This document shows, in pieces, positions 2,741-34,440 of a stretch of 64,000 bases of DNA. The stretch's first letter is position 1; each line of letters opens with the position of its first letter. This stretch comes from Parcubacteria group bacterium. Its GTDB lineage: Bacteria > Patescibacteriota > Minisyncoccia > Moranbacterales > GCA-2747515. The notes below the pieces were generated by a model that was given only the letters and a program-made list of their open reading frames with translations, made no database searches and was not told the DNA's origin. Both the position numbers and the translations under genes were made by a program. The DNA lies in NCBI GenBank assembly GCA_041660065.1, contig JBAZXC010000002.1:25084-89083 (forward strand), given 5' to 3'.

Positions 2741-2780
2741 ATTATTTGTTATTAGTCGCTACACCAACTTCCCCGGTTTT

Positions 2781-3950: not shown

Positions 3951-4061
3951 CCAGTTTTTAAAGTTAAAAAGCCAAAAGTGCAAAGTATATGCTTTATAAA
4001 CTTTTTTCGTCATAGACGAATCCGCATTTTGCAGAAACTTTTCACCTTCAACTAAGCGTGT

Positions 4062-4133: not shown

Positions 4134-4218
4134 TATATATACTAAACAGAAAAACAGTAAACGTGTACAGGGAAAATTGTACCATCTGACGATAATATTG
4201 TCAATCAAAAAAGAAATC

Positions 4219-4746
4219 TCACAAAACGTCGATGCTTTGCAAAAAGTATTTATAGACTTCCAAAGCATTTTTTGCCTGTTCTTGGGTGATCTGTACATTT
4301 TCCTTTTGTACGATTTTGTTGCTCAGCGCATGCACATCACGCACCGCATCAAGCGACGAGAGACTCCCTTGCGGGATACGCGCCAAACGCTCGGCAAATG
4401 TACTACCACCATATCCCTGCACTTCCAATGATTTGTATACGAAATGATCCGCCTCCAGTATGGCGGCTAGATATTGTTTGGTATCATCCGACCGCAAACG
4501 ATCAGTGATCGCACTCCATTCCCGCATATCATTTTTCTTGCTCGTTTTCTTTGCACCGGTTCCCATACGCATACTGCGCAATTGTTTGCGCACATTACCC
4601 AAATGGATCAAAAGGATCACATCCACAACCAAAACGGTGGAATAAATTACAAGAAAGATCTTTATGAATAAAAAGAGACCGCTGTGTAAAAATGCCACAA
4701 AAAGATTTTGTGCCGTAGATCCTAAAGTGACCAAAACATCTTCCAT
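4219..4746 (-). CDS. Hypothetical membrane-anchored protein downstream of gatCA
   Basis: N-terminal hydrophobic segment (LFLFIKIFLVIYSTVLVVDVILLI) followed by a soluble charged domain. No family recognised. Confidence 0.4.
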   Translation of the reverse strand: MEDVLVTLGSTAQNLFVAFLHSGLFLFIKIFLVIYSTVLVVDVILLIHLGNVRKQLRSMRMGTGAKKTSKKNDMREWSAITDRLRSDDTKQYLAAILEADHFVYKSLEVQGYGGSTFAERLARIPQGSLSSLDAVRDVHALSNKIVQKENVQITQEQAKNALEVYKYFLQSIDVL

Positions 4747-4752
4747 ACTCTA

Positions 4753-6180
4753 TTATGAATTAATTTCAAACGTATATCCTGCATTCAAAATTCCTTCTTC
4801 ATCAAACCATTTGCCCATCAACTGTCCTCCGACAGGAAGTTGTATGCCATCGCATGTCATTGTGCCTACCGGGATCGAAAGTCCCGGTACACCGACAAGG
4901 TTTGCCGTTACTGTATAGATATCCGAAAGATACATCTTGAGCGGATCATCGCATTTTTCACCGATCTTAAACGCAACCTCCGGCGCTGTCGGCGTGAATA
5001 CATAATGCACTTTTGTAAACGCATTCTCGAAATCTTTTTTCAAAAGCGCGCGAACCTTTTGCGCCTTCTTGTAATACGCATCATAATATCCCGCGGAAAG
5101 CGTATACGTCCCCAACATCACACGTCTCTTGATCTCCGGACCAAACCCCTTACCACGCGTTTCCATATATTGTTCCAATACGGTTTTTGGATCGATGCCT
5201 TGTGCCCCACCAAACCGTATGCCATCGTAACGCGCCAAATTTGAGCTCAGTTCTGAAGGCATGATGATATAGTATGTTGCAAGCGCATACTCGGTGTGTG
5301 GTAAACTGATATCCACGATCTCTGCACCAAGTTCTTTGAATTTCTCCACACTTTGCATAAATACCTCTTTCACACCATCATCCAAACCCTCGCCGAGGTA
5401 TTCTTTTGGGATACCGATCTTTACTCCCTTGATATCGCCAATACAATAATCCTCATACGACTTATCGCCACTTTGCGCGCTCGTCGCATCTTGCGGATCA
5501 TGTCCCGCGATCCGACTGAGCACGATCGCCGCGTCTTCCACCGTCTTGGTAATTGATCCAACCTGATCCAAGCTTGAACCCATTGCGATCACACCATACC
5601 GCGACACGCGTCCGTAGGTTGGCTTGAGTCCCACGACACCGCAAAAGCTCGCCGGCTGGCGAATTGATCCTCCTGTATCGGTGCCGAGTGCCCACACCAC
5701 TTCATCACTCCCTACCGCTGCAGCGCTACCACCACTTGTGCCACCAGGTACACGCGTAGGATCAACAGGATTTTTGGTCGGACCGTACGCACTGTTTTCT
5801 GTAGTACTACCGCATGCAAACTCATCAAGATTTGTTTTGCCGACGATCACTGCATCACTTTCTTTGATTCGTTTGGCAACTGTAGCATCATATGGTGCAA
5901 TATAATTTTCCAATATTTTTGACGCCGCAGTTGTTATCGTGCCAGCCATACAGATATTATCCTTCACTGCACAGGGAATGCCTGCCAACAGATCGATTTT
6001 TTCACCATTTTTGATCTTTGCATCCACTTCTGCTGCTTTGTGCAATGCCTGTTCTTTTGTAAGGCTAAGAAAAGCATGTAACTCGCCGTCCTTTTGATCA
6101 ATTGTTGCAAAAGATCTTTCCGCAAGTTCAACAGCAGTTACCTCGCCTTGTACTAATTTTTCATGTAAATCTCTGATCAT
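4753..6180 (-). CDS. gatA: Glutamyl-tRNA(Gln) amidotransferase subunit A
   Basis: Amidase signature GGTSGGSAAAVGSDEV. The N-terminus MIRDLHEKLVQGEVTAVEL is typical of GatA. Start placed at the internal Met so it does not overlap gatC. Confidence 0.9.
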   Translation of the reverse strand: MIRDLHEKLVQGEVTAVELAERSFATIDQKDGELHAFLSLTKEQALHKAAEVDAKIKNGEKIDLLAGIPCAVKDNICMAGTITTAASKILENYIAPYDATVAKRIKESDAVIVGKTNLDEFACGSTTENSAYGPTKNPVDPTRVPGGTSGGSAAAVGSDEVVWALGTDTGGSIRQPASFCGVVGLKPTYGRVSRYGVIAMGSSLDQVGSITKTVEDAAIVLSRIAGHDPQDATSAQSGDKSYEDYCIGDIKGVKIGIPKEYLGEGLDDGVKEVFMQSVEKFKELGAEIVDISLPHTEYALATYYIIMPSELSSNLARYDGIRFGGAQGIDPKTVLEQYMETRGKGFGPEIKRRVMLGTYTLSAGYYDAYYKKAQKVRALLKKDFENAFTKVHYVFTPTAPEVAFKIGEKCDDPLKMYLSDIYTVTANLVGVPGLSIPVGTMTCDGIQLPVGGQLMGKWFDEEGILNAGYTFEINS

Positions 6181-7271: not shown

Positions 7272-7328
7272 ATTTTTTTATTATTACTTACTTTATAAAC
7301 TTTCTCCTTTATAAACTTTTTACTCCTT

Positions 7329-11063: not shown

Positions 11064-11810
11064 CTAAAAACTAAGATCTGGCGGATAATCTCGTAGTGAG
11101 ACAGAGGTTTGAATATAGATTGGCTGATCTCTCCTTTGTTCATAGAGGATATTTGTGCTCGACGGCAACACAGACATACCGATCGTCACGCGTCCGATCG
11201 TATCGGTTTTTTGGGAATCAAGTTGATCCATATAGCGCGTTGGTGCAGTCCAAAATTTCCCCGTAACATATCCGCTGGTCAACCGCTCCAATTTATAATC
11301 CGGACTACTCGGTACATACGTCGCATCTTTCGTACATTCCTCAATCTGATCAAAGCCAATTCCTACCATAGATTCGACCCATAGCGCACTATCATCATAT
11401 TTGCTTCCTGCCCGACCCTCGCCTGTCGCAAAATAAAACCGCATACACAATTCTTGCGAAAAATCATAAAGTACTAACTTGTTTGATCCATCAATACGCA
11501 AAAGAGAAAAATCATCCGTGTTCCCCTGTGCACTCGCGAATTGTGCCGGATCACGCAAGTCCTCATTATTCCTCCCCAATACCGTCGCCGTGCGCAATGT
11601 CTTTGCCATGTAGTTCATCGCAAATTGCGCATTTTCCAGATCATTTTGCGATACACGCGCATTTCGATATGCCTGAATTTGCCGTGCAAAGATGCCCACG
11701 ATCGCCGTCATGATGATGAGAAAAATGAAAATCGACACCATGAGCTCGATAAGCGTAAATCCTTTTTTGCAATTTTTTATTCTCCAATTATTCATTGTAT
11801 GATTTTTCAT
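11064..11810 (-). CDS. Pseudopilin / minor pilin (prepilin-type N-terminal cleavage/methylation domain)
   Basis: KKG|FTLIELMVSIFIFLII class III signal peptide. Start chosen at MKNHTMNNW; the ORF extends to 11885. Confidence 0.7.
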   Translation of the reverse strand: MKNHTMNNWRIKNCKKGFTLIELMVSIFIFLIIMTAIVGIFARQIQAYRNARVSQNDLENAQFAMNYMAKTLRTATVLGRNNEDLRDPAQFASAQGNTDDFSLLRIDGSNKLVLYDFSQELCMRFYFATGEGRAGSKYDDSALWVESMVGIGFDQIEECTKDATYVPSSPDYKLERLTSGYVTGKFWTAPTRYMDQLDSQKTDTIGRVTIGMSVLPSSTNILYEQRRDQPIYIQTSVSLRDYPPDLSF

Positions 11811-11815
11811 AGTTA

Positions 11816-12466
11816 TCAATCGCCATAGTTGATCCATGACGTCAGTCGCGTTTGCGCATAGACACATCCTTTTGCGATCATGCAATCCTTTTCAATATTT
11901 GCTTTCGTCGGGAAATCCGCGCCGCCAAAAACCACCACACTTGTCACATTCGCGATAATCTCATCTGGTGGCGTTGCTGCATTTATCGGGCCATTATTGG
12001 ACCGATCGTATTCTATGTAAATCTTTCGACGCAAGCCGGTTTCAAGAAACGTATTTCCTCCGGATTGATGCGTATACATACCGGTTGCCGTGTTGAGATA
12101 GATCTCCGATGGAGAGTTATTACACAAAAACTTAGAATCCGTCCCCCCAGTGTTATAGTCGATCGTACACTCAATGATCTGTGATCCTGTAATTGATGGA
12201 AATCCGTATTCTTGATCAAATGCCGTGCACCGCTCTGAACCGGTTCCGCATGTTGACTGCGTCACGTTATTATCTCGCACATTGCGCACCAACTCCGTCC
12301 CTTCTTGCGCGAGCAATGTCGCGATCACCGCATCACGACTGTCATGCAAATCTCCCACGCTTCGCACAGTCAGATAGATTGCATCCACAATACCCACAAG
12401 CAAAATAAACATCGCCACCATCACCTCGCCGATCGAAAAACCTCTTTTGTTTTTTTTATTATACAT
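11816..12466 (-). CDS. Pseudopilin / minor pilin
   Basis: KRG|FSIGEVMVAMFILLVGIV prepilin motif. Start chosen at MYNKKNKRG; the ORF extends to 12487. Confidence 0.65.
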   Translation of the reverse strand: MYNKKNKRGFSIGEVMVAMFILLVGIVDAIYLTVRSVGDLHDSRDAVIATLLAQEGTELVRNVRDNNVTQSTCGTGSERCTAFDQEYGFPSITGSQIIECTIDYNTGGTDSKFLCNNSPSEIYLNTATGMYTHQSGGNTFLETGLRRKIYIEYDRSNNGPINAATPPDEIIANVTSVVVFGGADFPTKANIEKDCMIAKGCVYAQTRLTSWINYGD

Positions 12467-12471
12467 AAATT

Positions 12472-13071
12472 TCAATAAAACGGACATGCAATATCACTAT
12501 CATTGAATCCCAACTCCTCTATAAGTCCGGTCGAATATACACAGACGTGGAATTTTTTGTCTTCATTGTTCTTTTTAATCACAAAATCAGTGCCCGTACT
12601 TGGGACTGTTTCCTGCGTGCCGCTGTCATAATATTTGCCATAGGGCACCGTAAAAATTACATGATCACTTACGCGACCCCTACTGTCATGTCCTGTAATG
12701 CTCATCCCATTGGAAGAAACATCCTCTGACAAAAAAGGGACGCCATATGCGTTTACATCCGTGTCCGTCGGACAAAATGTATCTATTGTACGCTGTGTTC
12801 CCCGAATGCTATAACCACTACTACCATTCAAAATAAATGCAAAAGAGCATGGCAACATGTCATTGTCACGCTGGCGACCTGTCAATGCGTTATTTTGCGC
12901 CTCACGCACAGCAGCAGAAACTTCTCGTCCGACAGCCTCAAGCTCTTTGGTCGAACGATCCTTAAATGAGATCACAAACATCACCATCGTCATAATCACA
13001 ATGATCGCAACGATAATGACCATTTCCAACAGTGAAAAACCTCGCCTCGTCCGTATTTTTGTTTTATACAT
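12472..13071 (-). CDS. Pseudopilin / minor pilin
   Basis: RRG|FSLLEMVIIVAIIVIM prepilin motif. Start chosen at MYKTKIRTRRG; the ORF extends to 13086. Confidence 0.7.
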   Translation of the reverse strand: MYKTKIRTRRGFSLLEMVIIVAIIVIMTMVMFVISFKDRSTKELEAVGREVSAAVREAQNNALTGRQRDNDMLPCSFAFILNGSSGYSIRGTQRTIDTFCPTDTDVNAYGVPFLSEDVSSNGMSITGHDSRGRVSDHVIFTVPYGKYYDSGTQETVPSTGTDFVIKKNNEDKKFHVCVYSTGLIEELGFNDSDIACPFY

Positions 13072-13142
13072 ATGTGTATTATCCATATGTCCCTTATTAT
13101 ATCATACACAATTCAAATTTGCACAAAGACGCGCAGATCACA

Positions 13143-13940
13143 TCACAAAAAAAGCGAGATCATATGCGGATAGACATTTTGCACGACAAATGCCGCACCC
13201 AGACCAAAGATGAGAAACGGACCAAAAGGCACTTCCGTCTTGAGAGATCGTTTTTTGATCACCATAAGACCGATCCCATAGATCGCACCCACGCAAAACG
13301 CTACCAAAAGTGCGATAAACGTGCCGATCGGTCCCAAAAGAAGTCCTATGGCAATCGCGATAAACGCATCCCCATATCCCATCCATGTTTCATCGGAGAT
13401 ATAACTCAATCCAAAGAAAAAACAAAACGCCACCACTGCACTCATGCCATGCGTAAAAGAAACACTACTCCACACATCCGTCCAAAAAGCGTCAATATGA
13501 AGATCTCGTGTCATATTTGCAACGATAAGCAATGCAATAGCCATCCACATCACATTCATGGGAATTTCCATGTATTTCCAATCATACACAAAAATAACGA
13601 CCAGATGCGCAAACACAAAAGCATACAGCACCGCAACAAGAAGATGATCAATTGATCCATGCACAAAAAAAGCACCAACAGCACCAAAGATCGCTCCCGT
13701 AGCAAACTCGACCAACGGATATTGCATCGAGATTTTCTTTTGACATGCGCGACATTTGCCACGCAATAAAATATAACTCAAAACCGGAATGTTATCTTTC
13801 CATGCAATATTTTTTTTGCACTGCGGACAGTGTGATTTTTGCACGACCAATCCCTCCCCTGTGCGCAAACGGCAAATCACCACATTGCAAAAACTCCCAA
13901 TCACCAACCCATAAATAAAAAAGAGAATTATATAGATCAT
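13143..13940 (-). CDS. pilD: Prepilin peptidase (A24 family, PilD-like)
   Basis: N-terminal TM helix, zinc-binding CxxC...CxxC (CPQCKK...CRACQKK) in the first cytoplasmic loop, and a polytopic membrane domain. Confidence 0.85.
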   Translation of the reverse strand: MIYIILFFIYGLVIGSFCNVVICRLRTGEGLVVQKSHCPQCKKNIAWKDNIPVLSYILLRGKCRACQKKISMQYPLVEFATGAIFGAVGAFFVHGSIDHLLVAVLYAFVFAHLVVIFVYDWKYMEIPMNVMWMAIALLIVANMTRDLHIDAFWTDVWSSVSFTHGMSAVVAFCFFFGLSYISDETWMGYGDAFIAIAIGLLLGPIGTFIALLVAFCVGAIYGIGLMVIKKRSLKTEVPFGPFLIFGLGAAFVVQNVYPHMISLFL

Positions 13941-14010
13941 ATTTATTACATATCCACTTTTGACTTTTGCATTTATACTTTTTACTTTTGCCTTTTGACT
14001 TTTGACTTAT

Positions 14011-14427
14011 CTAGCATCCTTCATCGCTGACAAAACCGATCTCACTGTACGTGATGCTTGTACAATTTCCCGCGTTTCCCGTTCCCGGGGTGATTACAAT
14101 CTCAAAATGTCCGTCAAAATCACATTGTATCGGCACTGTGACCGCACCAATATGTGCATCATCAGGATACACGCTATCAGCCAGATCCGTATCACTGCAA
14201 ATCGCCACAGTAGAGCCTGCATTGACCGCCTTACTTTGGATGTCTCCATTCTCATCACAGCACATAATACCCGCCTTGTGGATCGTTGCCGCACTCGACT
14301 TGAATGAAGCGTCCTTTGCCTTATTACGTGCATATCCCAAGGTCGTCAAGATGATTGACGCCAAAATACCAATGATCGCTATTGTGATCAAAAGCTCGAT
14401 CAATGTAAAGGCTTTTTTGGTATGCAT
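14011..14427 (-). CDS. Type IV pilin (major-pilin-like) with a Cys-rich, Ser/Thr-rich C-terminal domain
   Basis: MHTKKA|[19 protein letters not shown]. The residue at -1 is Ala rather than the canonical Gly. Shares the ARNKAK(D/Q)ASFKSSA segment and the Cys pattern (CC...C...C...GC end) with the pilin at 34054-34440. Confidence 0.8.
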   Translation of the reverse strand: MHTKKAFTLIELLITIAIIGILASIILTTLGYARNKAKDASFKSSAATIHKAGIMCCDENGDIQSKAVNAGSTVAICSDTDLADSVYPDDAHIGAVTVPIQCDFDGHFEIVITPGTGNAGNCTSITYSEIGFVSDEGC

Positions 14428-14524
14428 AACGGGAAAACAAAAAATCACACCTCCCCTTTGCTATTATCATATCATATACATCCAAAATTCATAGCATACA
14501 CAAAACAACAATATATCTTTTTTA

Positions 14525-17485: not shown

Positions 17486-18211
17486 TTATATCGAAACGCT
17501 AATTTTTTTCCTAGCAATAACTACGTTATCTAAGTATAAATTATCATTTTTTGGCAGTATTTTTGATAAAATTGCCCCAACGATATTTACAGGCGCTATC
17601 AAAATAATAGTTATCAACACGTTTAAATAATTATTTTTTGTTAATGTTACGTCATATATATATGACGTAACTAACTGAAATATCGTTTCTATTCCTTTGC
17701 TCGTTTTTCTACTATCCAGCATCTCAAAACCATGCTCGCTTAAAATATGTTTTAAGCCAAATGATGTATATCTTGCAAAATCATATGGCTTTTCATGTTC
17801 TTCCCAAACGAGGGGAACGGTCAATAAAAAAATACCATCTTTTTTTAAAACTCTATTAGCCTCTTTCAAAAAATGACCTGGATTAAACACATGCTCAAAA
17901 ACTTGACTGGAAATTAAGCTATCAAAACTTGCATCACCAAATGGCATTTTATTACAGTCATAAAAATAATCCGCTTTTTCATTTGGTCTTCCTTCTACAT
18001 CAAGTCCAATATACTCATCACACACACACAAATTTTCGTATGGCTTTGATCCGCACCCAATATCCAAAACCCTGCCCCTTAAATTTACTATTAGATCTGA
18101 TACATTCTTATGCAAACCCCTTCTTGAAAAATAAAAAGGATTTATAAACAAACCAACAAAGCTGGGATTGAACTGCTCTCTTTCATATAATAACCTTATT
18201 TTTTCCAGCAT
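17486..18211 (-). CDS. Class I SAM-dependent methyltransferase (Methyltransf_11-like)
   Basis: Motif I VLDIGCGSKPYE and motif II/III LISSQVFEHVFNPGHFLKEANRVLKKDGIFLL. Confidence 0.7.
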   Translation of the reverse strand: MLEKIRLLYEREQFNPSFVGLFINPFYFSRRGLHKNVSDLIVNLRGRVLDIGCGSKPYENLCVCDEYIGLDVEGRPNEKADYFYDCNKMPFGDASFDSLISSQVFEHVFNPGHFLKEANRVLKKDGIFLLTVPLVWEEHEKPYDFARYTSFGLKHILSEHGFEMLDSRKTSKGIETIFQLVTSYIYDVTLTKNNYLNVLITIILIAPVNIVGAILSKILPKNDNLYLDNVVIARKKISVSI

Positions 18212-19119
18212 AACTTTTTCTCAAACAAATATTTTTTAAATAGTTTATAAAAGGATGTATTTCTCTTATAAAATTTTATGATCTTACGCACCGCCAAATC
18301 ATTCTCTCTCAAAACTGCATCCATTCTTACATTATATGATGAATTAAGACTGTTTTTGAAGATATCACCCCCTCGACAATTATGCCCGCTATCATCAATG
18401 CCTATATTATCGACAAAAGTTTTAGCTGGATTTAAACAGAGTCCACCCTGTTTAAATATAGTAGCATACCAAAAAATTGCCCACGTATCATTTTTTTTCA
18501 TTTTATTGGCGATGATCTGATCCCAAAACCCCGTTCCATTACATACGTTAAATTTTTTGATAGCTTTTTGATCAAATGTGGCAATGATTTTATCAAGATC
18601 TTTCTCAAAATATTGCCACCGATCGCGCCATGTTGCCCACCCCCAGCAATTCATACCCCTCCAAAGGAAAACATCATCAAGCCCATCGGTGTCGATTGGA
18701 TAATTCCATCCGCTGATATGCCACACTTTTTTTTCATTCTCATAATAATCCAATGCATCATTCATAAATTTCAAAAAGTATGGACTCGTGACCAGATCAT
18801 CTTCCAGCACAATAACCTTTCCATACATATTCACGATTTCCGTAACGCCGTCAATGATGGAATTTGCGAGTCCTTTGTTTTTTTCTTGCTCAATAATCGT
18901 CACTTTTTTGAATCCTGTTATGGTTTTGATATATGCACGCACCGCATCCACATCCTCTTGTACTTTTTCATCTCGCGCATTATCGCTATACACAAAAAGA
19001 TCGCTATCAAGCGCAAGATCATTTTTTTGCAACGCCTCAACCGTCCGTCGCGTATGCTCAGGGCGGTTATATACAAACAATACAATTGGCGCTAAATTAT
19101 GCATTTTTTTGAGTAACAT
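18196..19119 (-). CDS. Putative glycosyltransferase (GT-A-like; family uncertain)
   Basis: N-terminal IVLFVYNRPEHTRRTVEAL...LFVYSDN followed by a DD-containing segment (VIVLEDDLVTSPYF). A near-identical copy of its 5' end lies at 19998-20207. Confidence 0.45.
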   Translation of the reverse strand: MLLKKMHNLAPIVLFVYNRPEHTRRTVEALQKNDLALDSDLFVYSDNARDEKVQEDVDAVRAYIKTITGFKKVTIIEQEKNKGLANSIIDGVTEIVNMYGKVIVLEDDLVTSPYFLKFMNDALDYYENEKKVWHISGWNYPIDTDGLDDVFLWRGMNCWGWATWRDRWQYFEKDLDKIIATFDQKAIKKFNVCNGTGFWDQIIANKMKKNDTWAIFWYATIFKQGGLCLNPAKTFVDNIGIDDSGHNCRGGDIFKNSLNSSYNVRMDAVLRENDLAVRKIIKFYKRNTSFYKLFKKYLFEKKLCWKK

Positions 19120-19139
19120 TGGAAAATATATTATCTAAA

Positions 19140-19931
19140 TTATTTTTTAAGAATTGCGATAATGTTTTGAAATGCATAAATTTCACAAAACACTGGTGAA
19201 TAGTCTTTTATTTTCAAAAGTTCTCCACCAGGCAAAATTCTATAGAAATTATAATTTGGTAGAAAATCCCAAAAATCTTTAAAATTCGTTCTGCTTATAA
19301 TATTCATTTCATTGAATTCAAAATGTATAGCATTTATTTGATTATTTTTTATATACTTCTCAACACCTCTCAAAACATTAAACTCATTACCTTCTACATC
19401 AATCTTTAATAGATGTATTTCTCTAATATTGTGTTCTTGAATAAACGAATCCAAAGAAATCACATCTACCAAATGTGAGACAGCGTTCCCCTTGTGCAAA
19501 TCCTCAATAACATTTTTATACAATGAGGCGTGCGAAGACCCGTCATTACAATCATAATCATATAATTTCATCACACCACTCTCATTTCCCACCGCTACGT
19601 TATATGCAGTGAAATTATCACTCTTTACTTTGTTAATTAATTTTTGATATGTCCTGGGATGTGGCTCAAATGCAAAAATAATGCTACTATTATTCATTTT
19701 TAAAACAGTGGAAGAATAATTTCCAACGTTTGCGCCAACATCAATAACAATTGGGGATTTTTTGTTGTCCAAATATTTCTTGAGCCATATATTCTCGCCA
19801 GTTAGATAGCTACTTTTATAATTCAAGACACCCAATCCTCTCAAGCCCAATTGGTAAATTAGTCTATTGAACTTTCTAAATATTTTTCTACAAAATATAT
19901 ATGCGTACAGATTGTATATTTTTTCTATCAT
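19140..19931 (-). CDS. FkbM-family methyltransferase
   Basis: VIDVGANVGNYSS...FAFEPHP...LLKIDVEGNEFNVL. Confidence 0.75.
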   Translation of the reverse strand: MIEKIYNLYAYIFCRKIFRKFNRLIYQLGLRGLGVLNYKSSYLTGENIWLKKYLDNKKSPIVIDVGANVGNYSSTVLKMNNSSIIFAFEPHPRTYQKLINKVKSDNFTAYNVAVGNESGVMKLYDYDCNDGSSHASLYKNVIEDLHKGNAVSHLVDVISLDSFIQEHNIREIHLLKIDVEGNEFNVLRGVEKYIKNNQINAIHFEFNEMNIISRTNFKDFWDFLPNYNFYRILPGGELLKIKDYSPVFCEIYAFQNIIAILKK

Positions 19932-19997
19932 TTAGTTTGTTTTTTATTAAATCACACAGATCATCATCTCCACACAAAATATTTTACACCCCTGAAT

Positions 19998-20207
19998 TTA
20001 TATTTCAAAATAATTAATCCGAACATACTCACCAAAGACAGCCACCCGATGAACAAGATACTTACAATTTTTATCTCGCGCATTATCACTATACACAAAA
20101 AGCTCGCTATCAAGCGCAAGATCATTTTTTTGCAACGCCTCGACCGTCCGTCGCGTATGCTCAGGGCGGTTATATACAAACAATACAATTGGCGCTAAAT
20201 TATTCAT
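19998..20207 (-). pseudogene. Truncated duplicate of the 5' end of the glycosyltransferase gene at 18196-19119
   Basis: About 145 nt (20063-20207) match 18970-19113 with about 4 mismatches. The encoded MNNLAPIVLFVYNRPEHTRRTVEALQKNDLALDSELFVYSDNARD then diverges and terminates after 69 aa. Confidence 0.8.
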
Positions 20208-21333
20208 CTTTTTGTGTTAATAAATACAACGCTCTTTGCACAACAAATCTATGAGAATCTATTTTTATATTATGCAACAAAAGCAAATTCCGTTCTACAA
20301 TACTTTTTGTGGGAAAAAATGTTTTTCTTGCTATATTTGTAATTCCCTGAATAAATGTCACTTTCTGTAACATTCCATTCATGGCCTCTTCATAATAACC
20401 GCGATAGTATTTTTCAAAAAGGCACAGTGACGTAGTATCATTCAATCTTTCATATTCCGCACCAAGCAAAGAATTCAAATGATCCATATCATATACTACT
20501 TCATCCTCCTTTACTATACACAACTGACCATTACGTTTCTTGTGAAAGATAATATCAAAATCTTTTAGCCCATCTTTTTCAATGTCTAAAATCACACTGT
20601 AACTATCGTCACTTTTTTTCTCAAAACCATCCACATCAAAATAAAAATTTCCTAGACTGTAAAAGATCATGCTTTCGCCATATTTTTCATATCCCTGAGG
20701 CACGTGTGGATGATGACCGATCACGACATCCGCGCCAATGTCACAAAAACGCCTATATTGCTCACGCCACTCTTTGATAGGAAAATCGATATTCTCCACT
20801 CCTGCATGTGCCAACACAATGACAATGTCAACATTTTTTTTCAATTCTCGCACACAATCCTCCAGAGATCGATGCAATATCCACGCATATCCGCTACGAC
20901 CCCTATCTTCATCCAAACATCCAAATTCATTTTCACATCCAGCGATCAGGCCTATTTTTACACCATTTGTCTCCACTACCTTGGGCTGATACGTCTGGGC
21001 AAAATCCCTACCACATCCAACATATTGTAACCCATGATCTTCCAACATTGACATTGTATGTGCCATGGCAATATCACCATAATCATAAATATGATTGTTT
21101 GCCAATGATACATAATCAAATCCATACTTTCGCAACTGCGGGATCATCTCTGGTGCTTGCACAAGATGCGGACCCGCTTTTTTTATGGGATGTGCTCCAT
21201 CAGTTTTTATCGACGCCTCAAAATTACAGATTGCAATATCCGCATTTTCTACAACTTTTCGTATGTTATCATCCAAGAAATCTTTTGCATCAGTACTGAC
21301 GATATCCCCACATGCAAATATTTTTACACCCAC
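20200..21333 (-). CDS. CapA-family (PGA_cap) metallophosphatase-like capsule/polymer biosynthesis protein
   Basis: ICNFE...LANNHIYDYG...VVIGHHPHVPQG motifs of the CapA / calcineurin-like family. Confidence 0.7.
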   Translation of the reverse strand: MGVKIFACGDIVSTDAKDFLDDNIRKVVENADIAICNFEASIKTDGAHPIKKAGPHLVQAPEMIPQLRKYGFDYVSLANNHIYDYGDIAMAHTMSMLEDHGLQYVGCGRDFAQTYQPKVVETNGVKIGLIAGCENEFGCLDEDRGRSGYAWILHRSLEDCVRELKKNVDIVIVLAHAGVENIDFPIKEWREQYRRFCDIGADVVIGHHPHVPQGYEKYGESMIFYSLGNFYFDVDGFEKKSDDSYSVILDIEKDGLKDFDIIFHKKRNGQLCIVKEDEVVYDMDHLNSLLGAEYERLNDTTSLCLFEKYYRGYYEEAMNGMLQKVTFIQGITNIARKTFFPTKSIVERNLLLLHNIKIDSHRFVVQRALYLLTQKDE

Positions 21334-21352: not shown

Positions 21353-22954
21353 TTACGTATATGATTGCGTATCTTTTATGCCTTTTTCAATCGCTTTTAC
21401 CACACAATAATCATACAATGCTCGTAAAAATTTGTTTTTTACTCCACACAATTGTAGCACGCCACGAATTTTTGGAACATGCAATAACTTATTCTGTAAA
21501 GACTGGTACAAATTCGTATTATCTAGTAATTTATTAATTTGCACAAGTCTGTTCTCATCTATGTATTTTTTCATTTTATCTGCATCAATTGGTTCAAATC
21601 GTGTCTTTCTTGCTACTTCATAATTCAAATCATTGTTTTTATCAGATTTTAAATCCATTTCTTCGAGATTGAGTCCAAAGCGCGCAAAAAAATCTTTTTC
21701 CCACACTCTATTTTTTCTCCGTTCATCAGATATATTCAAAGTTGCCTTTACGATATCAAAATTCAGGAATGGTGTCCAAACGGGCATGCCGAAATATTCA
21801 GGTATTTGTGTAAGATATGAGAGAAGAATCAACTTCACGCGCATTGCAAGAATTGATTTTATCTTATCATTTTTTAAATATTCACAATTCCTTTTATAAT
21901 ATTCTTTTTTCAATTTTTCATTACTCTGCAAATTCAGATATTTCAGATCCAAACTCATTCCATGCGCATACCCCAAATTAATAATATCGTGATAATTTTC
22001 TATTTCATCGAATTTACCTAATTCTGCCCACGCATCACCAATAATACCACTCAAAAAAGAAGACCCCGAGAAATCATGTCCTTTGGAAATATTTTTATAA
22101 AATTCTATATGATACATCCCATGAAGATGTGTGCTAAAGCCATATATTTTATACCATTTATCGATATATTTATGATACTCTTTTAATTCTATTTGCTCCC
22201 ATTTCGTATTGTAGATCTCTGATATTTTTTTTGCATGCGCCACTTCATGACTTTGGCTCTGATCTTCACTAACGCCATAAGTAAAACTTCGTATCCTTTT
22301 TTTATCTTTAACGAGATGATTTAACATACGACTATCATACCCGCCAGAAGTTGGGATAACTATATCGCCAACAGTTACAGATTCAACATCGGTTATATAT
22401 TTTTGCATGAGATCTATCACATCATTTTCATCTGACACATCTGCCAAAAAACTATCATCCAGAACAGGATCTTCTTTATATTCTATTTCTGCATGATCAG
22501 ATATGGTCAACGTGGAATAATATCTCATGAATTTTACATCTGCAAAGATCGTTTGTTCAAAAACACTATATCCAAATTCACAAAAATTCGACAATCCCTC
22601 TTCATGAATTTTTTTATCTCTTAAACAAAAATTAGATAATGTGGAAACGATATTTTCTTTTTGGTTGTAAAATACCGGGATAGACCCCAACCAATCATTT
22701 TCAACGATAATATTATCGCCTTCAAAACTGATCAGAATATTTCTATCCAAAAGACCATCGTTTAAGGGAAATGACAAAGAATATTTGCCATTGATCTTAT
22801 GTAGCTCAATATCTCCAATACCCCACAAATAGATATTATGATGACCATGTTTAACTACAATAGTTTTTATGCCAACATCAAAAAAATCAACTTCAGGTGA
22901 TCTATTTTCTTTTGTAATGAGAAATCCTATTATTTTATTCATTATAAAGATCAA
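21353..22954 (-). CDS. Asparagine synthetase-like PP-loop amidotransferase (no N-terminal glutaminase Cys)
   Basis: PP-loop motif VIPTSGGYDSRMLNHLV. 533 aa. The N-terminal ~200 aa domain is of unknown type. Confidence 0.6.
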   Translation of the reverse strand: MIFIMNKIIGFLITKENRSPEVDFFDVGIKTIVVKHGHHNIYLWGIGDIELHKINGKYSLSFPLNDGLLDRNILISFEGDNIIVENDWLGSIPVFYNQKENIVSTLSNFCLRDKKIHEEGLSNFCEFGYSVFEQTIFADVKFMRYYSTLTISDHAEIEYKEDPVLDDSFLADVSDENDVIDLMQKYITDVESVTVGDIVIPTSGGYDSRMLNHLVKDKKRIRSFTYGVSEDQSQSHEVAHAKKISEIYNTKWEQIELKEYHKYIDKWYKIYGFSTHLHGMYHIEFYKNISKGHDFSGSSFLSGIIGDAWAELGKFDEIENYHDIINLGYAHGMSLDLKYLNLQSNEKLKKEYYKRNCEYLKNDKIKSILAMRVKLILLSYLTQIPEYFGMPVWTPFLNFDIVKATLNISDERRKNRVWEKDFFARFGLNLEEMDLKSDKNNDLNYEVARKTRFEPIDADKMKKYIDENRLVQINKLLDNTNLYQSLQNKLLHVPKIRGVLQLCGVKNKFLRALYDYCVVKAIEKGIKDTQSYT

Positions 22955-23594
22955 CTAATAAAGATGTGTAGGAAATATTATTCTCTGTAAATTGTTTCCT
23001 TAAATGCCTTGGAACGCTCTGAATCATTTTTTCATATTCTTCATCATTATCTGTAAATCTACCTTTATAATTTTTTGAACATCGCGAGATATATCCATTT
23101 TCAAAATTAAGATCTGATGTATGAAAAACGCCATCTTTATCAAAATATTCAAGCCCTTTTATCTTGTAGCCACATCTCTCTGCAATTTGTTCAAGATCAT
23201 CAATGCTGTAATGATATTTATGATCATCTGCACCAGGCTCAGTGCCATTTTTTCCAGTCAACTCACGCACATATATTGATGGGTGATATGCATCTGGCAC
23301 GGCTATTCTAATTACACCATTTTTACTTAAATACTTTTTTGCAATTGAAAGAAAAAACAGAAAATCATCATATACCAAATGCTCTATCACATGCTCCAAC
23401 AATATCTTGTCAATTTTTTTATCACCAAAAATAAAAGCAAAATCACGCTCTTGCGTAATATCAAGCTCATCAATATCTGTAGCGACCCACCCATCAAATT
23501 CAGTAAAGTTTGCCCCAGCAATCAATTTGATCGACGGGTTTTTTTGAATCATATATTTTAATATATTTTTTTTTATTTTATTCACAAATTGCAT
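22935..23594 (-). CDS. SAM-dependent methyltransferase (Methyltransf_11-like)
   Basis: KLIAGANFTEFDGWVATDID (an LNxGCG...GWxNxD-type motif I variant) and ILLEHVIEHL...LSKNGVIRIAVPD. Confidence 0.5.
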   Translation of the reverse strand: MQFVNKIKKNILKYMIQKNPSIKLIAGANFTEFDGWVATDIDELDITQERDFAFIFGDKKIDKILLEHVIEHLVYDDFLFFLSIAKKYLSKNGVIRIAVPDAYHPSIYVRELTGKNGTEPGADDHKYHYSIDDLEQIAERCGYKIKGLEYFDKDGVFHTSDLNFENGYISRCSKNYKGRFTDNDEEYEKMIQSVPRHLRKQFTENNISYTSLLVDLYNE

Positions 23595-24372
23595 ATAGAT
23601 CCTCTTGTCCTAAATTATTAATATCATCATGCATCACTTCCGTTGCATCTAATTTATAGGTTTTGTATCTGTTTTTTGTGAGATAATCTATTACTTCACT
23701 TTTACTTTTTCCTTGCTTGTCTAATAATATTGGAGAATGTTCAAAAATAATCATTTTAATAGCATTAGATTGCAATTTCTTGCATGATCCTTGTAAAACA
23801 TCATACTCCAATCCTTCCACATCAATTTTTAAAACATCTATTTCTTGAATCCCCTTTTCTTCACAAAATTGATCTAGCGTTATTGTTTTAACTTGCACGG
23901 ATTTTTTAGCTTTCGCAATATGATTTTGATCAAGAGAATGATGCCCATACGAATCAAAAAGGTGAAATGTCGCTACGCCATTTTCATTTGAGACAGCTTG
24001 CTGAACTAACTCAACATTGCTAATATTATTCACCTCAATATTTTCATTAAATCTTTTTATGTTGTCCAAATCAGGTTCAAACGAGTAGACCTTCTCACAA
24101 TGTCGTGCCATCCACATAGTTGTAATCCCGATATTTGCTCCAATATCTATTCCAATTTTTGATTTTTTGATTTTTTTATCCAATGCAATCATCATCGGAA
24201 CAGCATCACAAGAGTTTTTTGTTGAAAAAATATATGCAAAATTATCTTTGAAATTTCTTTTTGCAAGTATCCCCATTCGATCTTTATGATAAAATTCTAC
24301 ATCATATTTTTTAAGTATATGCGAAAATATTTTGAATTCATATTTTTCAATTAGTTTCATTATTCTATTCAT
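23578..24372 (-). CDS. FkbM-family methyltransferase
   Basis: GIDIGANIGITTMWMARHCEKVYSFEPD...LKIDVEGLEYDVL. Confidence 0.75.
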   Translation of the reverse strand: MNRIMKLIEKYEFKIFSHILKKYDVEFYHKDRMGILAKRNFKDNFAYIFSTKNSCDAVPMMIALDKKIKKSKIGIDIGANIGITTMWMARHCEKVYSFEPDLDNIKRFNENIEVNNISNVELVQQAVSNENGVATFHLFDSYGHHSLDQNHIAKAKKSVQVKTITLDQFCEEKGIQEIDVLKIDVEGLEYDVLQGSCKKLQSNAIKMIIFEHSPILLDKQGKSKSEVIDYLTKNRYKTYKLDATEVMHDDINNLGQEDLYAICE

Positions 24373-24378
24373 ATTTTT

Positions 24379-25796
24379 TTAATTTTTTAGATATCTTCTT
24401 TTACTTAAAGCATACCCCCTTCTAAAAAGACTTGCAAAAAATAAGCTTTTTGATTGTGTGTAGAAATTAATCCTCGTTTTATTATAAATAACTAGTGAGA
24501 TATATCCTGCAAATGCGTATGAAATTAGAGTTGCCCACGCCGCACCCTCTATTCCCATTTTTGGAATTAAAATATAATTCATAAATATATTTATGACTGC
24601 ACCACTTGCAGTATTAATAAAAGAAAATATTTGCAGATTTTCCGTCACAAGCCACTTTCCACTTGCAACTCCCAAAACACAAAAACACCAGCCCAAATGT
24701 ATATTGTAAGCACACCTGCAGCTTGTGCATACTCTGCGCCATAGAGAAAATTGATGATCCAGCCACTCAAAAACGTCATTGGAATGGCAATGGCAATCGC
24801 CATCCATACCATCATATCATATAATTTTTGCAATCGTGCATAATATTCCTCTTCATTTCTCTTTTTTGTCACGATAATCGCGGGAAAGACCGAAGCGGTT
24901 ATGATTGTGGGGATAAAATACCACATTTCACTCAAATTGACCGCCACAGAATAGCTCCCGAGTGCCTCATAGCCCATCATATTACCAATCATCACCTGAT
25001 CGATACGCATATAGATCATCACAGAAATCGCAGATAATATGAGTGGCCATGAATCTTTCAACAAATCCCTCGCCACACCACGGTCAAACACCCACTTGCT
25101 GACATGTTTCTTGTTCTTATAATATGCAAAAGCAAAACCAATCGCCACAAAGATCGATTCCAATAACCCGACACTCGCAAACCATACAAGTGACGCACCC
25201 GTCGAAACTAAGCAGATCTTGATCGCTGCACTGATCAAAACCGCGGCGCTGCGTGAATATACAACGTATTTTGACACAACCTGCGATTGAAACCAGAGAT
25301 CGATCACATCCGCCGCTTGAAATACCAGGGTAAACGATACTGTTGCAGTTATGATCGTAATGAGGATATCCCCTTTCAACACATGCGCAGTGACGACAGC
25401 GAGCACGACCGCGAGCATGCCACCCCATAATTTGAGATAAAAAACTGTCCCGAGGAGTTTTTCTTTTTTGATCTTGCCCTCTACCAATTCCCTCACTGCA
25501 ATTGCGTCAAGACCCAACTTGGAAAAAACGCTAAAAAAACCTACAAGTGCTCCGGCATAACTCAAGACACCATATTTTTCCGGTCCCAAATAACGGATGA
25601 CCCACACGCCCACAAAAAAAGCCACTGCCATACGAATTGCCGTATCCAGAAAAAGCCAGTTCGCATTAGTGATGATCTTTCGGAGTTCGTGATGTGCGCG
25701 ATACTCGTGCCATTTTTTTTGCAAAAAATTTTTCATGTAATTATATCTTATATACATCATTTTTTTTAGCCATTCTCTTTTCGTGCATTTTATCAA
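24379..25796 (-). pseudogene. wzx: Wzx-like oligosaccharide flippase (PST family) split into two overlapping ORFs (24645-25796 and 24379-24807). Either a frameshift or a sequencing error.
   Basis: The 383 aa N-terminal part has the polysaccharide-biosynthesis-protein TM pattern (LGPEKYGVLSYAGALVGFFSVF...). The 142 aa ORF continues the TM domain in another frame, with a 160 nt overlap. Confidence 0.6.
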
Positions 25797-26517
25797 AATA
25801 TAGGAGTGCAGCGATCAATAAAGTGCTTTTACAATATTTTTTGTATAAAATTTCATGCTCATTATTATGTCTTGTCAGAGTTGTTTGTGAATCTTCTCTC
25901 ATATGAAAATTACATATAATTGTATCAATAAAACGAGAACGAACTTTATTTTTTGCTAAACGCAACCACATATCATAATCCATATTGCTACGCAAATTCT
26001 CATCAAATGTGCCGTAAACATCAAATACATCTTTTTTCAAAAAAACACTCTGATGCATCACATAATTCATCAGAAGCAAATACCAAAATCGTATTTTGTG
26101 ATGGCTTTTTCCATTCAGTACAACAAGAGAGGTATTATTAATGGTATTGATGACATGTGCCTTTCCATAGATCCAATCAGGACTATCATTCTTCTGGATG
26201 AAATCACTCACATTTTTGAGCACATCATGATCATAAAAACTGTCGTCAGAATGCAAATGATTGATATATTGCCCGGAAGATCTTTCGATCCCCTCATTCA
26301 TTGCATGTGATATGCCTCGCGGTTCAGATTGAAAGACCTTTACTCTGTCTGGATGCTTTTGCCGATATTTCTCTATGATCGCCATTGTGCCGTCAGTAGA
26401 AAACCCATCAATGAAAATATGTTCAAAATCTTCGTATGTCTGCGCTTCCACAGAATCGATATTTTCTTGCAAATATTTTGCACTGTTATATGTGCATGTA
26501 ACAATTGAAAATCTCAT
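25741..26517 (-). CDS. Glycosyltransferase family 2
   Basis: MRFSIVTCTYNSAKYLQENIDSVEAQTYEDFEHIFIDGFSTDGT plus a DxD/HSDD region. Tandem paralog of the next gene. Confidence 0.8.
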   Translation of the reverse strand: MRFSIVTCTYNSAKYLQENIDSVEAQTYEDFEHIFIDGFSTDGTMAIIEKYRQKHPDRVKVFQSEPRGISHAMNEGIERSSGQYINHLHSDDSFYDHDVLKNVSDFIQKNDSPDWIYGKAHVINTINNTSLVVLNGKSHHKIRFWYLLLMNYVMHQSVFLKKDVFDVYGTFDENLRSNMDYDMWLRLAKNKVRSRFIDTIICNFHMREDSQTTLTRHNNEHEILYKKYCKSTLLIAALLYFDKMHEKRMAKKNDVYKI

Positions 26518-26576: not shown

Positions 26577-27356
26577 CTACACTTTATACAAAGAAATTTT
26601 GTATAATAAAAATTTATACAATGTAGTAAAAAGTATAAGAAATTTTCTCACAAACCGATTTTTGACATACCTCTCGTAGAGAATCACATTTTCTGTATTT
26701 GCTCTCCCAATGGTGCTTTGCGCATCTTCTCTGATCGAAAAATTGCAAATAATCTCATTGATGAATTTTGCATGAACATTCTTTTGCGTCAATTTCAACC
26801 ACAGATCGAGATCCATATAATTCTTGAGCGTTTCGTCAAAATATCCGTACTTTTCAAAGATTTGCTTTTTGATAAAAACGCTTTGATGTGGGATGTAGTT
26901 GCTCACCAACAAAAGCAACCAAAATCGCGATTTATCATAAAAATATCTTCGCGGCGGTATGATCGTTGTTTTTTTATTTGCAACATTTACTACTCTCGCT
27001 TTGCCATAGAGCCACAAAGGTTCATGATTTTTTTTGATGAAGTCATCTACTTTGCGCAATACGTGATCGTCATAAAAGCTATCATCAGAATGGAGATGGA
27101 TCAGGTATTCTCCCGCAGACCGCTTGATCCCCTCATTCATTGCATGTGATATGCCTCGCGGTTCAGATTGAAAGACTTTGACTCTATCCGGATGTTTTTG
27201 CTGATATGTCTCTATGATCGCCATTGTGCCATCAGTGGAAAATCCATCGATAAAGATGTGTTCAAAATCTTCGTATGTCTGCGCTTCCACAGAATCGATA
27301 TTTTCTTGCAAATATTTTGCACTGTTATATGTACATGTAATGACTGAAAATTTCAT
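26577..27356 (-). CDS. Glycosyltransferase family 2 (tandem paralog)
   Basis: MKFSVITCTYNSAKYLQENIDSVEAQTYEDFEHIFIDGFSTDGT. The first ~50 aa and two internal nucleotide tracts are near-identical to 25741-26517. Confidence 0.8.
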   Translation of the reverse strand: MKFSVITCTYNSAKYLQENIDSVEAQTYEDFEHIFIDGFSTDGTMAIIETYQQKHPDRVKVFQSEPRGISHAMNEGIKRSAGEYLIHLHSDDSFYDDHVLRKVDDFIKKNHEPLWLYGKARVVNVANKKTTIIPPRRYFYDKSRFWLLLLVSNYIPHQSVFIKKQIFEKYGYFDETLKNYMDLDLWLKLTQKNVHAKFINEIICNFSIREDAQSTIGRANTENVILYERYVKNRFVRKFLILFTTLYKFLLYKISLYKV

Positions 27357-30503: not shown

Positions 30504-32261
30504 TTATTTTAACTTAAATACGGTAAAGTGCATACTCTCCCCCTTGTATTTTTCCGATTGCACATTATAGCGCTCTTCGATCAATTCCGGACTCAATGCG
30601 ATCGTCCCGGTAAATACATCCGAATTGGAAAGGATGATCTTTGCTCCAAAATCATTTTTGATCGCGTTGATAACCTTCTCACTATTTTCTTTTTTAAACG
30701 CGTTGCGAGATTCTGCGTCCGTTCTTTTGACCATTAATTCATCAAACAATTCATCTTTGCACACCTTTGGCAATTCACAATAGTACTTATATGCAAAAAT
30801 ATTATAATATTTCCAGTACAACGACTCATCATATGCTTTGAGTGTCAACGGCTCAATGCCCATGGAATATTTATTGTGTGCATTTGTAAAAAACATCAAA
30901 TTAAAATAACTCCAGTTATGCAAATACACCTTGTCACCATCATCAGAGTGCTCGTCGATCCACTGCGCCGCACGTTGCGCCGGACGATAATCAAATGTAT
31001 TTGCTTCATTATAAATATGTGAAAAAGAATACGCACACATGGCAAGTACAACAACCCACACGCTACATTCAAAGCCCTTCCCTCCAAACGATCGTGGCGG
31101 GATCAATTGTGTGTCAAGTAATGCTGTAATGACAAAGCCCAGCAAAAGGACAAGTGCCGGTATGAAAAAATCAAAAAGTCGTCCCGTAAGAAAAAAGGAT
31201 CCGCCCGCCATGCATAATGTAAAGATCATCAACGTGATCAACCAATGCATTTTACCTGCATGGAGCGCTTCATGCACATCAGCATCTTTTTCCCTAAATA
31301 AGTGATACATATATGCCACGGCCATCACACAAAAGATCATCGTAACCACGGTAACCGATTGTCCGAATGTATTCATCGTGAGATCCATCGTCGCCATTTC
31401 AATGCCGCCAAGTGATCCATGTGCTGATGCAGAACCACTTTGCTGGATCTTAAAAATCCATTGCAACCATCTAAACAATGACCCGGGAAAACCGGGAAAA
31501 AATGCCATGCCAAAAATAATCCCACCAAGCGCTGCCACAAAGACCTTTACATCAACCTTTTTTTCTACAAGATAACGAGAAAACTCCACCATGCCCACGA
31601 TGATAAGTGGCATAAAATATGTGGATTGATGCCACAACACATGAATGAGTACGACAAAAAAGAGGGGAACGTACTTTCTATGAATTGCAAAACGCATCTC
31701 AAAAAAAACAAGTGCGATCATCAAGACAAGAGCCCTCCCGAGCAACATCCTCGACACAAAAAACGATGACCCCACAAGAAGCAATGTAAAAAAAAGCGGA
31801 TGACGCACATGTTCTTTGCGCATCAAAAAATACATCAGTGCAATCACGACACCGCCATAAAACGCATCCAGAGCACGCAGTGCAAAAATCCAATCGTGGA
31901 AATATGTAAAAGGAATGAGCGACACTTGAAACAAACTCACGGCATAACGACTGCCACCATCTGAATGCGATAAAAGATAGATCCAATCGAAGTGATTGAC
32001 AGCATTCAATCCCTCCGTCCGAAGCAGATATGCATACTTGAGATGAAAATAATGATCATCAAATATCGGATCCCCCTCGGCAAAAGCATAGATCGTCATC
32101 ACAATAGCAAAGAACACGACAAAAAGAATCGTCGACGCAATGCGTGGACGACCCCAAATATTTTTCAAAAAAACCACACCCTGATCAATCGCTCGATGCA
32201 TGACATGACGCCCTCGATCTTCAGTCACTGCCGTCGCATTCTTTTTTCGCTTTTTCCCCAT
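30504..32261 (-). CDS. GT-C fold membrane glycosyltransferase (PMT_2 / ArnT-like), copy 2
   Basis: About 12 predicted TM helices. First-loop acidic motif EGDPIFDDHYFHLKYAYLLRTEG. C-terminal soluble domain ending FTVFKLK. Paralog of 32266-33996. Confidence 0.65.
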   Translation of the reverse strand: MGKKRKKNATAVTEDRGRHVMHRAIDQGVVFLKNIWGRPRIASTILFVVFFAIVMTIYAFAEGDPIFDDHYFHLKYAYLLRTEGLNAVNHFDWIYLLSHSDGGSRYAVSLFQVSLIPFTYFHDWIFALRALDAFYGGVVIALMYFLMRKEHVRHPLFFTLLLVGSSFFVSRMLLGRALVLMIALVFFEMRFAIHRKYVPLFFVVLIHVLWHQSTYFMPLIIVGMVEFSRYLVEKKVDVKVFVAALGGIIFGMAFFPGFPGSLFRWLQWIFKIQQSGSASAHGSLGGIEMATMDLTMNTFGQSVTVVTMIFCVMAVAYMYHLFREKDADVHEALHAGKMHWLITLMIFTLCMAGGSFFLTGRLFDFFIPALVLLLGFVITALLDTQLIPPRSFGGKGFECSVWVVVLAMCAYSFSHIYNEANTFDYRPAQRAAQWIDEHSDDGDKVYLHNWSYFNLMFFTNAHNKYSMGIEPLTLKAYDESLYWKYYNIFAYKYYCELPKVCKDELFDELMVKRTDAESRNAFKKENSEKVINAIKNDFGAKIILSNSDVFTGTIALSPELIEERYNVQSEKYKGESMHFTVFKLK

Positions 32262-34053: not shown

Positions 34054-34440
34054 CTAACAACCTGCGAAAGTTGTCGATGTTTCTGTAACTGTTGCACTTG
34101 TACAACCACCTGCTTCATTTGCATTTGCTGTAACAGTAAGTCGGAATGTACCACCTGCACACTGGTTGCCAATGGCGATGCTGCTGATAACCGGTGAAGC
34201 TGGATATGTTGCCTGTACTGCCGGGCTACAAATTTCTGCACCTGAAGTAGTTTGCAATGCGCCACCCACCTGATCACAACACAAAATTGCTGCTGGAGCA
34301 ATTGATGATGCTGATGATTTGAATGATGCTTGTTTTGCTTTATTACGTGCACTGTTCAACGATACCAAAACAATAGATGCCAAGATACCGATGATCGCGA
34401 TCACGATCAAAAGTTCAATCAATGTAAAACCTTTTTTCAT
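34054..34440 (-). CDS. pilA: Type IV major pilin (PilA-like)
   Basis: MKKG|[32 protein letters not shown]. Cys-rich C-terminal domain ending in a Ser/Thr-rich tail [15 protein letters not shown]. Confidence 0.85.

Follow-up and report, generated by a model that had tools for sequence, protein, structure and literature searches.

Gene remnants are carried by 9 of the 178 O-antigen clusters of Escherichia coli, where they have been read as marks of relatively recent rearrangement (PMC7685785). Homology-facilitated illegitimate recombination (HFIR) has been invoked for the orphan immunity-gene arrays of the type VI secretion system (T6SS) of Vibrio cholerae and for orphan Rhs/CDI 3' ends (PMC5361080). 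Here we describe a duplicated 5' end of a glycosyltransferase (GT) gene in a stretch of 64 000 nucleotides (the window) from contig JBAZXC010000002.1 of a Parcubacteria group bacterium, a member of the candidate phyla radiation (CPR) represented by a metagenome-assembled genome (MAG; assembly GCA_041660065.1). The duplicate lies in a surface-glycan cluster, and we consider it, with a probability of about 80%, to be a recombination scar with a dead stub of the gene. For HFIR, the primary sources are reportedly de Vries & Wackernagel 2002, Prudhomme et al. 2002 and Meier & Wackernagel 2003, as referenced in the V. cholerae T6SS paper. Campbell-type insertion–duplication with a 5' gene fragment gives the order 5' fragment, insert, intact gene, and its direct repeats correspond to the cloned fragment.

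A repeat search of the window found two direct repeats of 150 nt with 95% identity, offset by 1103 nt and called here copy A and copy B (table 1). All of the genes discussed lie on the minus strand. Compared base by base, the copies differ at seven positions (18969, 18985, 19000, 19039, 19101, 19105 and 19112), which are gathered at both edges and leave perfect interior runs of 61 and 38 nt; the part from the ATG onward (140 nt) has five mismatches, or 96.4% identity. A match of this length cannot arise by chance in 64 kb, and the only other long repeat of at least 95% identity in the whole window is a 66-nt tandem at 3817–3949. Between the two copies lie a 136-nt spacer (X), a single gene for an FkbM-family methyltransferase (FkbM263) and a further 35 nt. 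The near-identical duplicate reported in the initial annotation is real. Its first interval stands, but the second (20063–20207) was shifted by about 10 nt from the correct 20068–20217, and the count of about four mismatches suits the coding part but not the full 150 nt.

Copy B is the beginning of an intact gene, the translation of which carries a VLEDD motif and matches the Pfam families GNT-I (27.5 bits, cut-off 25.4) and GT2 (24.2 bits, cut-off 23.3). It has 7866 homologues, the best of them 66–72% identical over 91–97% of the length. From these matches, the gene is predicted to encode a glycosyltransferase of the GT-A fold (Pfam GNT-I/Glycos_transf_2), and the length given in table 1 is supported by the JGI gene call (P0001), also of 302 aa.

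Copy A opens a much shorter frame (GT'). It translates as MNNLAPIVLFVYNRPEHTRRTVEALQKNDLALDSELFVYSDNARD and then continues through 24 unrelated codons to a stop. The frame departs from the GT sequence at a run of five A (A5), after codon 45 of 302, and the EDD (DXD-type) motif of the full protein lies near residue 105; no Pfam match was found for the stub. Lacking that motif and any Pfam match, the stub is almost certainly inactive as an enzyme. The fragment running into unrelated codons and a stop, and its place between a CapA-like gene and an FkbM gene, had been described correctly. The ATG of the stub overlaps the stop codon of the CapA-like gene (GATGAATAA). This is the native CapA–GT junction: in the metagenomic locus L006 the 3' end of CapA shows the same overlap and is followed by an intact GT of 298 aa, and copy A is 84% identical to that junction over 220 nt. 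Since this translational-coupling overlap is retained, the stub is probably still translated, and it is presumably a non-functional remnant that remains positioned for coupling to CapA. Exact-protein look-ups with the GT (as 307 aa, as 302 aa and as P0001) and with the stub returned nothing on record.

The surroundings of this GT family were compared in two sets of loci (numbered with the letter L). The CapA query yielded 80 metagenomic loci, 27 of which were assessable (CapA at least 44% identical); homologues of FkbM263 yielded 61 loci from many phyla, 58 assessable for the next gene and 16 inspected upstream. An AsnS-like gene is the conserved upstream partner of CapA, syntenic in most CapA-query loci, and it forms with CapA and the GT a module in which the GT starts no more than 120 nt from CapA in 20 of the 27 assessable loci. 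Three of the CapA-query loci contain the full block FkbM264–MT219–AsnS–CapA–GT. An FkbM263-like gene between CapA and a GT was found in none of the CapA loci.

The FkbM263 homologues show another arrangement. The GT family follows them directly in 13 of the 58 assessable loci, and the nearest open reading frame (ORF) upstream has a C-terminus of the Wzx-flippase type in 12 of the 16 inspected; in L148 and L151 the gene upstream of FkbM carries the Pfam domain Polysacc_synt. Some of these loci go on as GT–MT276–GT4, like the window. L003, a syntenic relative with about 80% nucleotide identity in both flanks, has the order flippase–FkbM245–GT–MT241–MT276–GT4–FkbM238–pilin and no CapA block; on the left, the similarity of about 80% runs through the flippase gene up to 24470. 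L151 also shares left-flank synteny with the window. Its flippase gene is followed by a homologue of FkbM263 that is 65% identical, a value commensurate with that of its neighbours (63–71%). AsnS-like–CapA–GT and flippase–FkbM–GT are both widespread natural arrangements. They occur separately elsewhere; the window has both upstream partners of the GT in tandem, with the duplicated GT 5' end as the seam between them.

Similar stubs recur in other loci. Among the N-terminal GT matches in the fetched loci, 50 run into a full gene, and orphan 5' stubs are present in six further loci, in L148 and in the window. L008 has the order GT11-like gene, GT stub (86 GT codons and an unrelated tail), AsnS–CapA, GT; over 236 nt, its stub (2768–3003) and the matching segment of the full GT (5830–6064) show 91% identity, and an indel of 6 nt right at their 5' end points to two alleles. 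The downstream 'full' GT copy of L008 appears to be frameshifted near 5890. In L095, from Candidatus Achromatium palustre, an FkbM gene is followed by a stub (5795–5974), about 650 nt and the GT (matching segment 6624–6803), with 80% identity over 186 nt. In L020 the stub (4021–4362, 121 codons) follows CapA and is separated by 3.6 kb from a GT with 68% identity. The loci L148, L149 and L150 have a stub after FkbM (4833–5006 in L148) and then a distantly related GT, 28% identical; a GT equally distant (28%) lies about 1.8 kb beyond the stub of L113 (5795–6007). The stub of L025 (4257–4361), again after CapA, is followed by no full GT on the same strand.

Orphan stubs directly after CapA-like or FkbM263-like genes are therefore recurrent in unrelated metagenomic and genomic loci. 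The identity between stub and partner ranges from about 30% to 95%, which argues for scars of varied age or parentage rather than for a maintained device. In these sequences, the 5' end of the same GT family is a recurrent seam in unrelated organisms, across phyla.

The duplicate in the window has the two features of a gene remnant: the truncated GT copy lacks the EDD motif, and it sits between blocks that are found separately elsewhere. That it might be a footprint of cassette shuffling had been proposed at the outset, and the comparative loci agree, since they place the stub at the seam of two alternative gene modules. The duplication had also been called fresh. It is recent relative to the divergence of about 20% from the nearest syntenic relative, but the copies already differ by 3.6–4.7%; if two alleles were the source of the copies, some or all of this divergence may be older than the event.

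Directly observed are the repeat and the truncation, the two adjacencies in their natural form and the fact that stubs of this kind recur at other loci; the recombination route, the direction of transfer and the non-function of the stub are inferred. As the most likely route we put forward, tentatively, that two allelic versions of the locus, from close relatives, were joined. Two versions of the cluster would have contained the same GT, one ending in FkbM264–MT219–AsnS-like–CapA–GT and the other reading flippase–FkbM263–GT–MT–MT–GT4. On the left side, a homologous crossover would have taken place in or upstream of the flippase gene. On the right side, a broken end inside the GT of the incoming CapA-type block would have been joined illegitimately to DNA upstream of FkbM263, so that the block now ends in a GT truncated after codon 45 and joined at A-run microhomology to X and FkbM263. 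Such an event would be a case of HFIR; the GT 5' ends would be alleles with about 95% identity, the downstream copy being the working gene and the stub a dead remnant. On balance, the locus would have acquired a methyltransferase step (or the CapA block) and kept its GT.

Several points favour the allelic join. Its topology is simple, and it accounts for the orphan stubs that stand beside unrelated GTs. In the window and in L008 alike, the repeat has its 5' edge at the GT start, as it should where homology sets in with the shared gene. The join is also favoured by three of the four internal differences between the copies, which are derived in the functional copy and not in the stub, and it fits the arrangements of L003 and L151. 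The stub/X junction within the A5 run and the one conserved flank (about 80% identical to L003) may reflect HFIR.

Other observations weigh against the join. The copies are 95–96% alike, while each is at most 84% identical to any database homologue in this segment, and this higher identity between copies fits duplication of one gene equally well. Upstream of the ATG, 9 of 11 positions also match, and in copy A these extend into the CapA coding sequence; such a match is expected by chance in about 1–4% of gene pairs in this A-rich genome, and it favours a true duplication of the CapA–GT junction. No close relative (more than 90% identity) with either parental arrangement was found in any collection searched: the best non-self match in the search for GT homologues is 72% identical, and a metagenome scan with the CapA query and a scan of GTDB genomes with the FkbM263 query reached 57% and 59%, respectively. 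The closest relative of the full GT is the CapA-linked GT of L006 (72%). In a neighbour-joining tree of the GT proteins, CapA-linked and FkbM-linked genes are intermixed, and the module of origin of the intact GT is not shown by it. Finally, X should be the 3' end of a flippase gene, both by this route and by the one considered below, and three tests gave no significant similarity. A hidden Markov model (HMM) built from 17 flippase C-termini scored 0.7 bits in the best frame, a value reached by 391 of 6000 shuffles; local alignment of nucleotides against the 3' ends of ten flippase genes reached P of about 0.09 at best; and gapped BLOSUM alignment gave P of about 0.2. X as a decayed flippase 3' end is not supported by these results. 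When the open frame of X was run with HMMER against the full set of 1.8 billion representatives, the sole match was a repetitive protein of 2587 aa, which is uninformative, and X has no significant similarity to any protein.

The same outcome could have been reached by another route, which we regard as somewhat less likely. X–FkbM263 and a 5' segment of the GT would have been inserted into a single CapA–GT locus by one crossover, either from a circularised fragment (Campbell-type insertion–duplication) or between sister chromosomes. The 150-nt target would have been duplicated and the GT left intact, so that both copies would descend from one gene and have diverged since. The identity of the copies (95–96% against at most 84% to any other homologue) and the match of 9 of 11 positions into the CapA 3' end (about 1–4% by chance) are readily understood in this way; the architecture of 5' fragment, insert and intact gene is that of an insertion–duplication product, and the full GT is closest to a CapA-linked gene, that of L006. 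Transformation-driven integration between chromatids is, moreover, known to create duplications (PMC3784515). Such an insertion requires, however, a circular or inter-sister intermediate. It leaves unexplained the orphan stubs beside unrelated GTs at other loci. Against it also stand the four internal differences, of which three are derived in the copy under selection and not in the stub, and the 5'-edge indel of the L008 analogue, which looks allelic.

The initial annotation had also raised phase or antigenic variation, which finds no support: the repeats are direct, no alternative junction was seen, and no Pfam domain of a recombinase, integrase or transposase is present among the 30 predicted proteins scanned between 60 and 35850. 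The locus accordingly lacks the features of an invertible or shufflon-type system. It does not have the form of a transposon with a target-site duplication either, since the duplication measures 150 nt as against 2–14 bp and the only ORF of the insert is the FkbM methyltransferase. None of the inverted-repeat pairs reported between 15000 and 25000 pairs the two ends of the insert. The only rearrangement that the repeats could mediate is a one-way deletion, by which FkbM263 would be lost and CapA–GT restored.

Two more active roles for the repeats may be considered. The unusually conserved first 100–250 nt or so of the GT family might be a general docking sequence for the exchange of upstream cassettes (AsnS–CapA or FkbM) between glycan loci across phyla, with the 150-nt repeats keeping FkbM263 excisable or re-insertable. 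This we think unlikely; if it were true, the population would vary in glycan methylation, and the glycan may decorate type IV pili. Still less likely is a programmed or semi-programmed device, in which RecA-mediated recombination would pop out or amplify the FkbM263 cassette and leave a population mixed for glycan methylation. By what is generally known of recombination, deletion could proceed between direct repeats such as these, which are 150 nt long, lie 1.1 kb apart and include perfect runs of 61 and 38 nt, and the k = 31 unitig graph described below is equally compatible with a CapA–GT deletion form and a 1103-nt circle. Against such a device stand the lack of an inverted repeat, of a recombinase gene and of any sign of alternative junctions, the one-way nature of the deletion, and the stubs of other loci, which are down to 68% identical or have no partner and thus resemble decaying scars rather than maintained switches.

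That the stub is a functional small protein, or a translational-coupling spacer under selection, is highly improbable. In its favour, the frame is uninterrupted, the overlap with the stop codon of CapA persists in its native form and the ancestral residues N2 and E35 are preserved in copy A. However, it has just 45 GT-derived residues and stops short of the EDD motif, no homologue is known for the tail of 24 codons, and the stubs at other loci vary in length and tail, some of them being frameshifted. The five differences between the copies give no power to detect selection.

A second assembly of the sequencing run SRR18595301 was available as Logan unitigs (k = 31), made probably from the same reads as the JGI assembly. 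Three unitigs cover the region: L001 (26316–20174), L002 (20133–19071) and L152 (19030–15324). L002 and L152 are 100% identical to the window, and L001 is 99.98% identical, its sole difference being one indel in a T-run of the flippase gene. All three break off at exactly 30 nt from a single-nucleotide polymorphism (SNP) specific to one copy, the pattern that a genuine repeat in two copies should produce at k = 31. L002 runs without a break from the 3' part of copy A, which carries private SNPs of that copy, through X and FkbM263 into the 5' part of copy B; because copy A is joined to X there, the junction of the truncated GT with X exists in the reads. A chimeric contig threaded from two strains (CapA–GT and FkbM263–GT), the artefact that the initial annotation had named as its refutation, is scarcely credible even for a metagenome contig with a 102-nt shared stretch that cannot be phased from k = 31 unitigs and with a one-base T-run difference that shows it not to be error-free, since every junction is reproduced by the second assembler (from reads that are probably shared) and the stub/X junction of L002 would exist in neither hypothetical intact strain.

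The coordinates of the main features are collected in table 1. In the direction of transcription, the cluster consists of several GT2 and GT4 genes, the Wzx-type flippase, FkbM264, MT219, the AsnS-like and CapA-like genes, the GT stub and X, followed by FkbM263, the GT, MT241, MT276, GT4 and FkbM238. The best non-self homologue of FkbM263 is 69% identical. With a GC content of 29.7%, this gene is not set apart from its low-GC neighbours (29–37%). A scan for promoters and terminators between 18800 and 20400 gave counts no higher than in shuffled controls; one promoter-like site (10 of 12 positions) in X and a weak hairpin with a T-run in copy A are not taken as evidence.

Table 1. Features of the duplicated GT 5' end and its neighbourhood in the window, in order of transcription.
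Feature	Position	Strand	Description
MT219 and FkbM264	22935–24372	minus	two methyltransferase genes; form with AsnS-like–CapA–GT a five-gene module in L011, L023 and L028
AsnS-like protein	21353–22954	minus	533 aa; weak, below-threshold matches to Asn_synthase and TIGR01536
CapA-like (PGA_cap) gene	20200–21333	minus	PF09587, 1.7e-56; stop overlaps the start codon of the stub
Repeat copy A	20068–20217	minus	last four CapA-like codons and stop, overlapping the stub start (GATGAATAA), then GT codons 1–45
GT' stub ORF	19998–20207	minus	69 aa; 45 GT codons, 24 unrelated codons and stop
X	19932–20067	minus	136 nt from the end of the stub homology to the start codon of FkbM; meets the GT homology in the A5 run
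FkbM263	19140–19931	minus	FkbM-family methyltransferase, 263 aa; PF05050, 7e-27; TIGR01444; enclosed by the repeat copies
Repeat copy B	18965–19114	minus	about 10–12 nt 5' of the start codon and codons 1–45 of the intact GT
Intact glycosyltransferase	18196–19104	minus	302 aa; ATG at 19104; GNT-I/GT2-like; an in-frame ATG at 19119 would give 307 aa

Type IV pilus genes (pilins, prepilin peptidase and PilC) are found on both sides of the glycan cluster. The cluster (about 14.5–30.5 kb) lies inside a type IV pilus locus (11064–14448 and 34642–35850) with N_methyl pilins, the prepilin peptidase at 13143–13940 and PilC at 34642–35850; the same embedding is seen in L003. Because of this embedding, it is a possibility that the glycan of the cluster decorates pilins.

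The Wzx-type flippase is split in the window into the ORFs 24379–24807 and 24645–25796, where the T-run at 24673–24678 has four T. The Logan unitig L001 has five T at this place and an intact gene of 452 aa. The difference is either a homopolymer error of the source contig or a real length polymorphism.

Other repeats were noted in the window. The two units of the 66-nt tandem at 3817–3949 are 95% identical and abut one of three tRNA genes (3239–3312, 3748–3821 and 4061–4134), in surroundings that are otherwise non-coding. Two tandem paralogous genes without Pfam match lie at the upstream end of the glycan cluster (30504–32261, 585 aa, and 32266–33996, 576 aa), with 77% nucleotide identity over 300-nt stretches (repeat families D2 and D5). 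Two tandem GT2 paralogues (25741–26517 and 26577–27356), a pair also present in L003, are 80% identical over 300 nt (family D1). An AT-rich inverted repeat of 45 nt (7280–7324 and 35867–35911), 84% complementary and with intergenic arms 28.5 kb apart, brackets the pilus and glycan region. A direct repeat of 122 nt (14297–14418 and 34316–34437), 75% identical over a distance of 20 kb, has its first copy within the 5' part of the pilin gene 14011–14448; a second pilin-like gene at 34316–34437 is a guess.

As a result of the event, an intact GT is now preceded both by the pair of AsnS-like and CapA genes and by one more gene for an FkbM methyltransferase, and the glycan was presumably changed by it. 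The locus offers a junction-by-junction record of how a CPR glycan cluster gained a modifying enzyme while keeping its GT, and the GT 5' end, as a recurrent seam, helps to reconstruct the diversification of surface-glycan loci beyond the well-studied pathogens. The case is modestly interesting in that the gene so closely duplicated has remained intact at a distance of 1.1 kb and in that the same GT 5' seam recurs across phyla; it reveals no new mechanism. In annotation, the 69-aa ORF should be flagged as a remnant.

Compared with known systems, the stub resembles the remnants in the O-antigen and capsule clusters of E. coli, Salmonella and Shigella, where a truncated, non-functional glycan gene likewise stands at the border of blocks of different ancestry. 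It differs from them in its host, an uncultured Parcubacteria (CPR) bacterium, in having no insertion sequence (IS) or H-repeat element where the junction lies, and in being an almost exact copy of the 5' end of a gene, the intact form of which lies 1.1 kb downstream. With HFIR systems it would share the use of a conserved segment that anchors the incoming DNA while the other end is joined illegitimately, and the persistence of displaced pieces as orphans beside the new module. Those systems leave orphan 3' ends or immunity genes, whereas a 5' stub is left here, and HFIR is suggested by the anatomy of the locus, namely the A-run microhomology and one conserved flank. The topology of Campbell-type insertion–duplication is identical: the direct repeats, from about position −12 to codon 45, form one contiguous target segment. 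The locus differs in that no circular intermediate or vector-like element is evident; a 1103-nt circle (the insert and one repeat) is compatible with the k = 31 unitig graph and is not demonstrated by it. Campbell-type insertion is, besides, a laboratory or rare natural route and does not constitute an element family. The duplicated GT 5' end is best read as a further example of the known gene-remnant scars, now in an uncultured CPR bacterium, and as an ordinary scar rather than a switching device.

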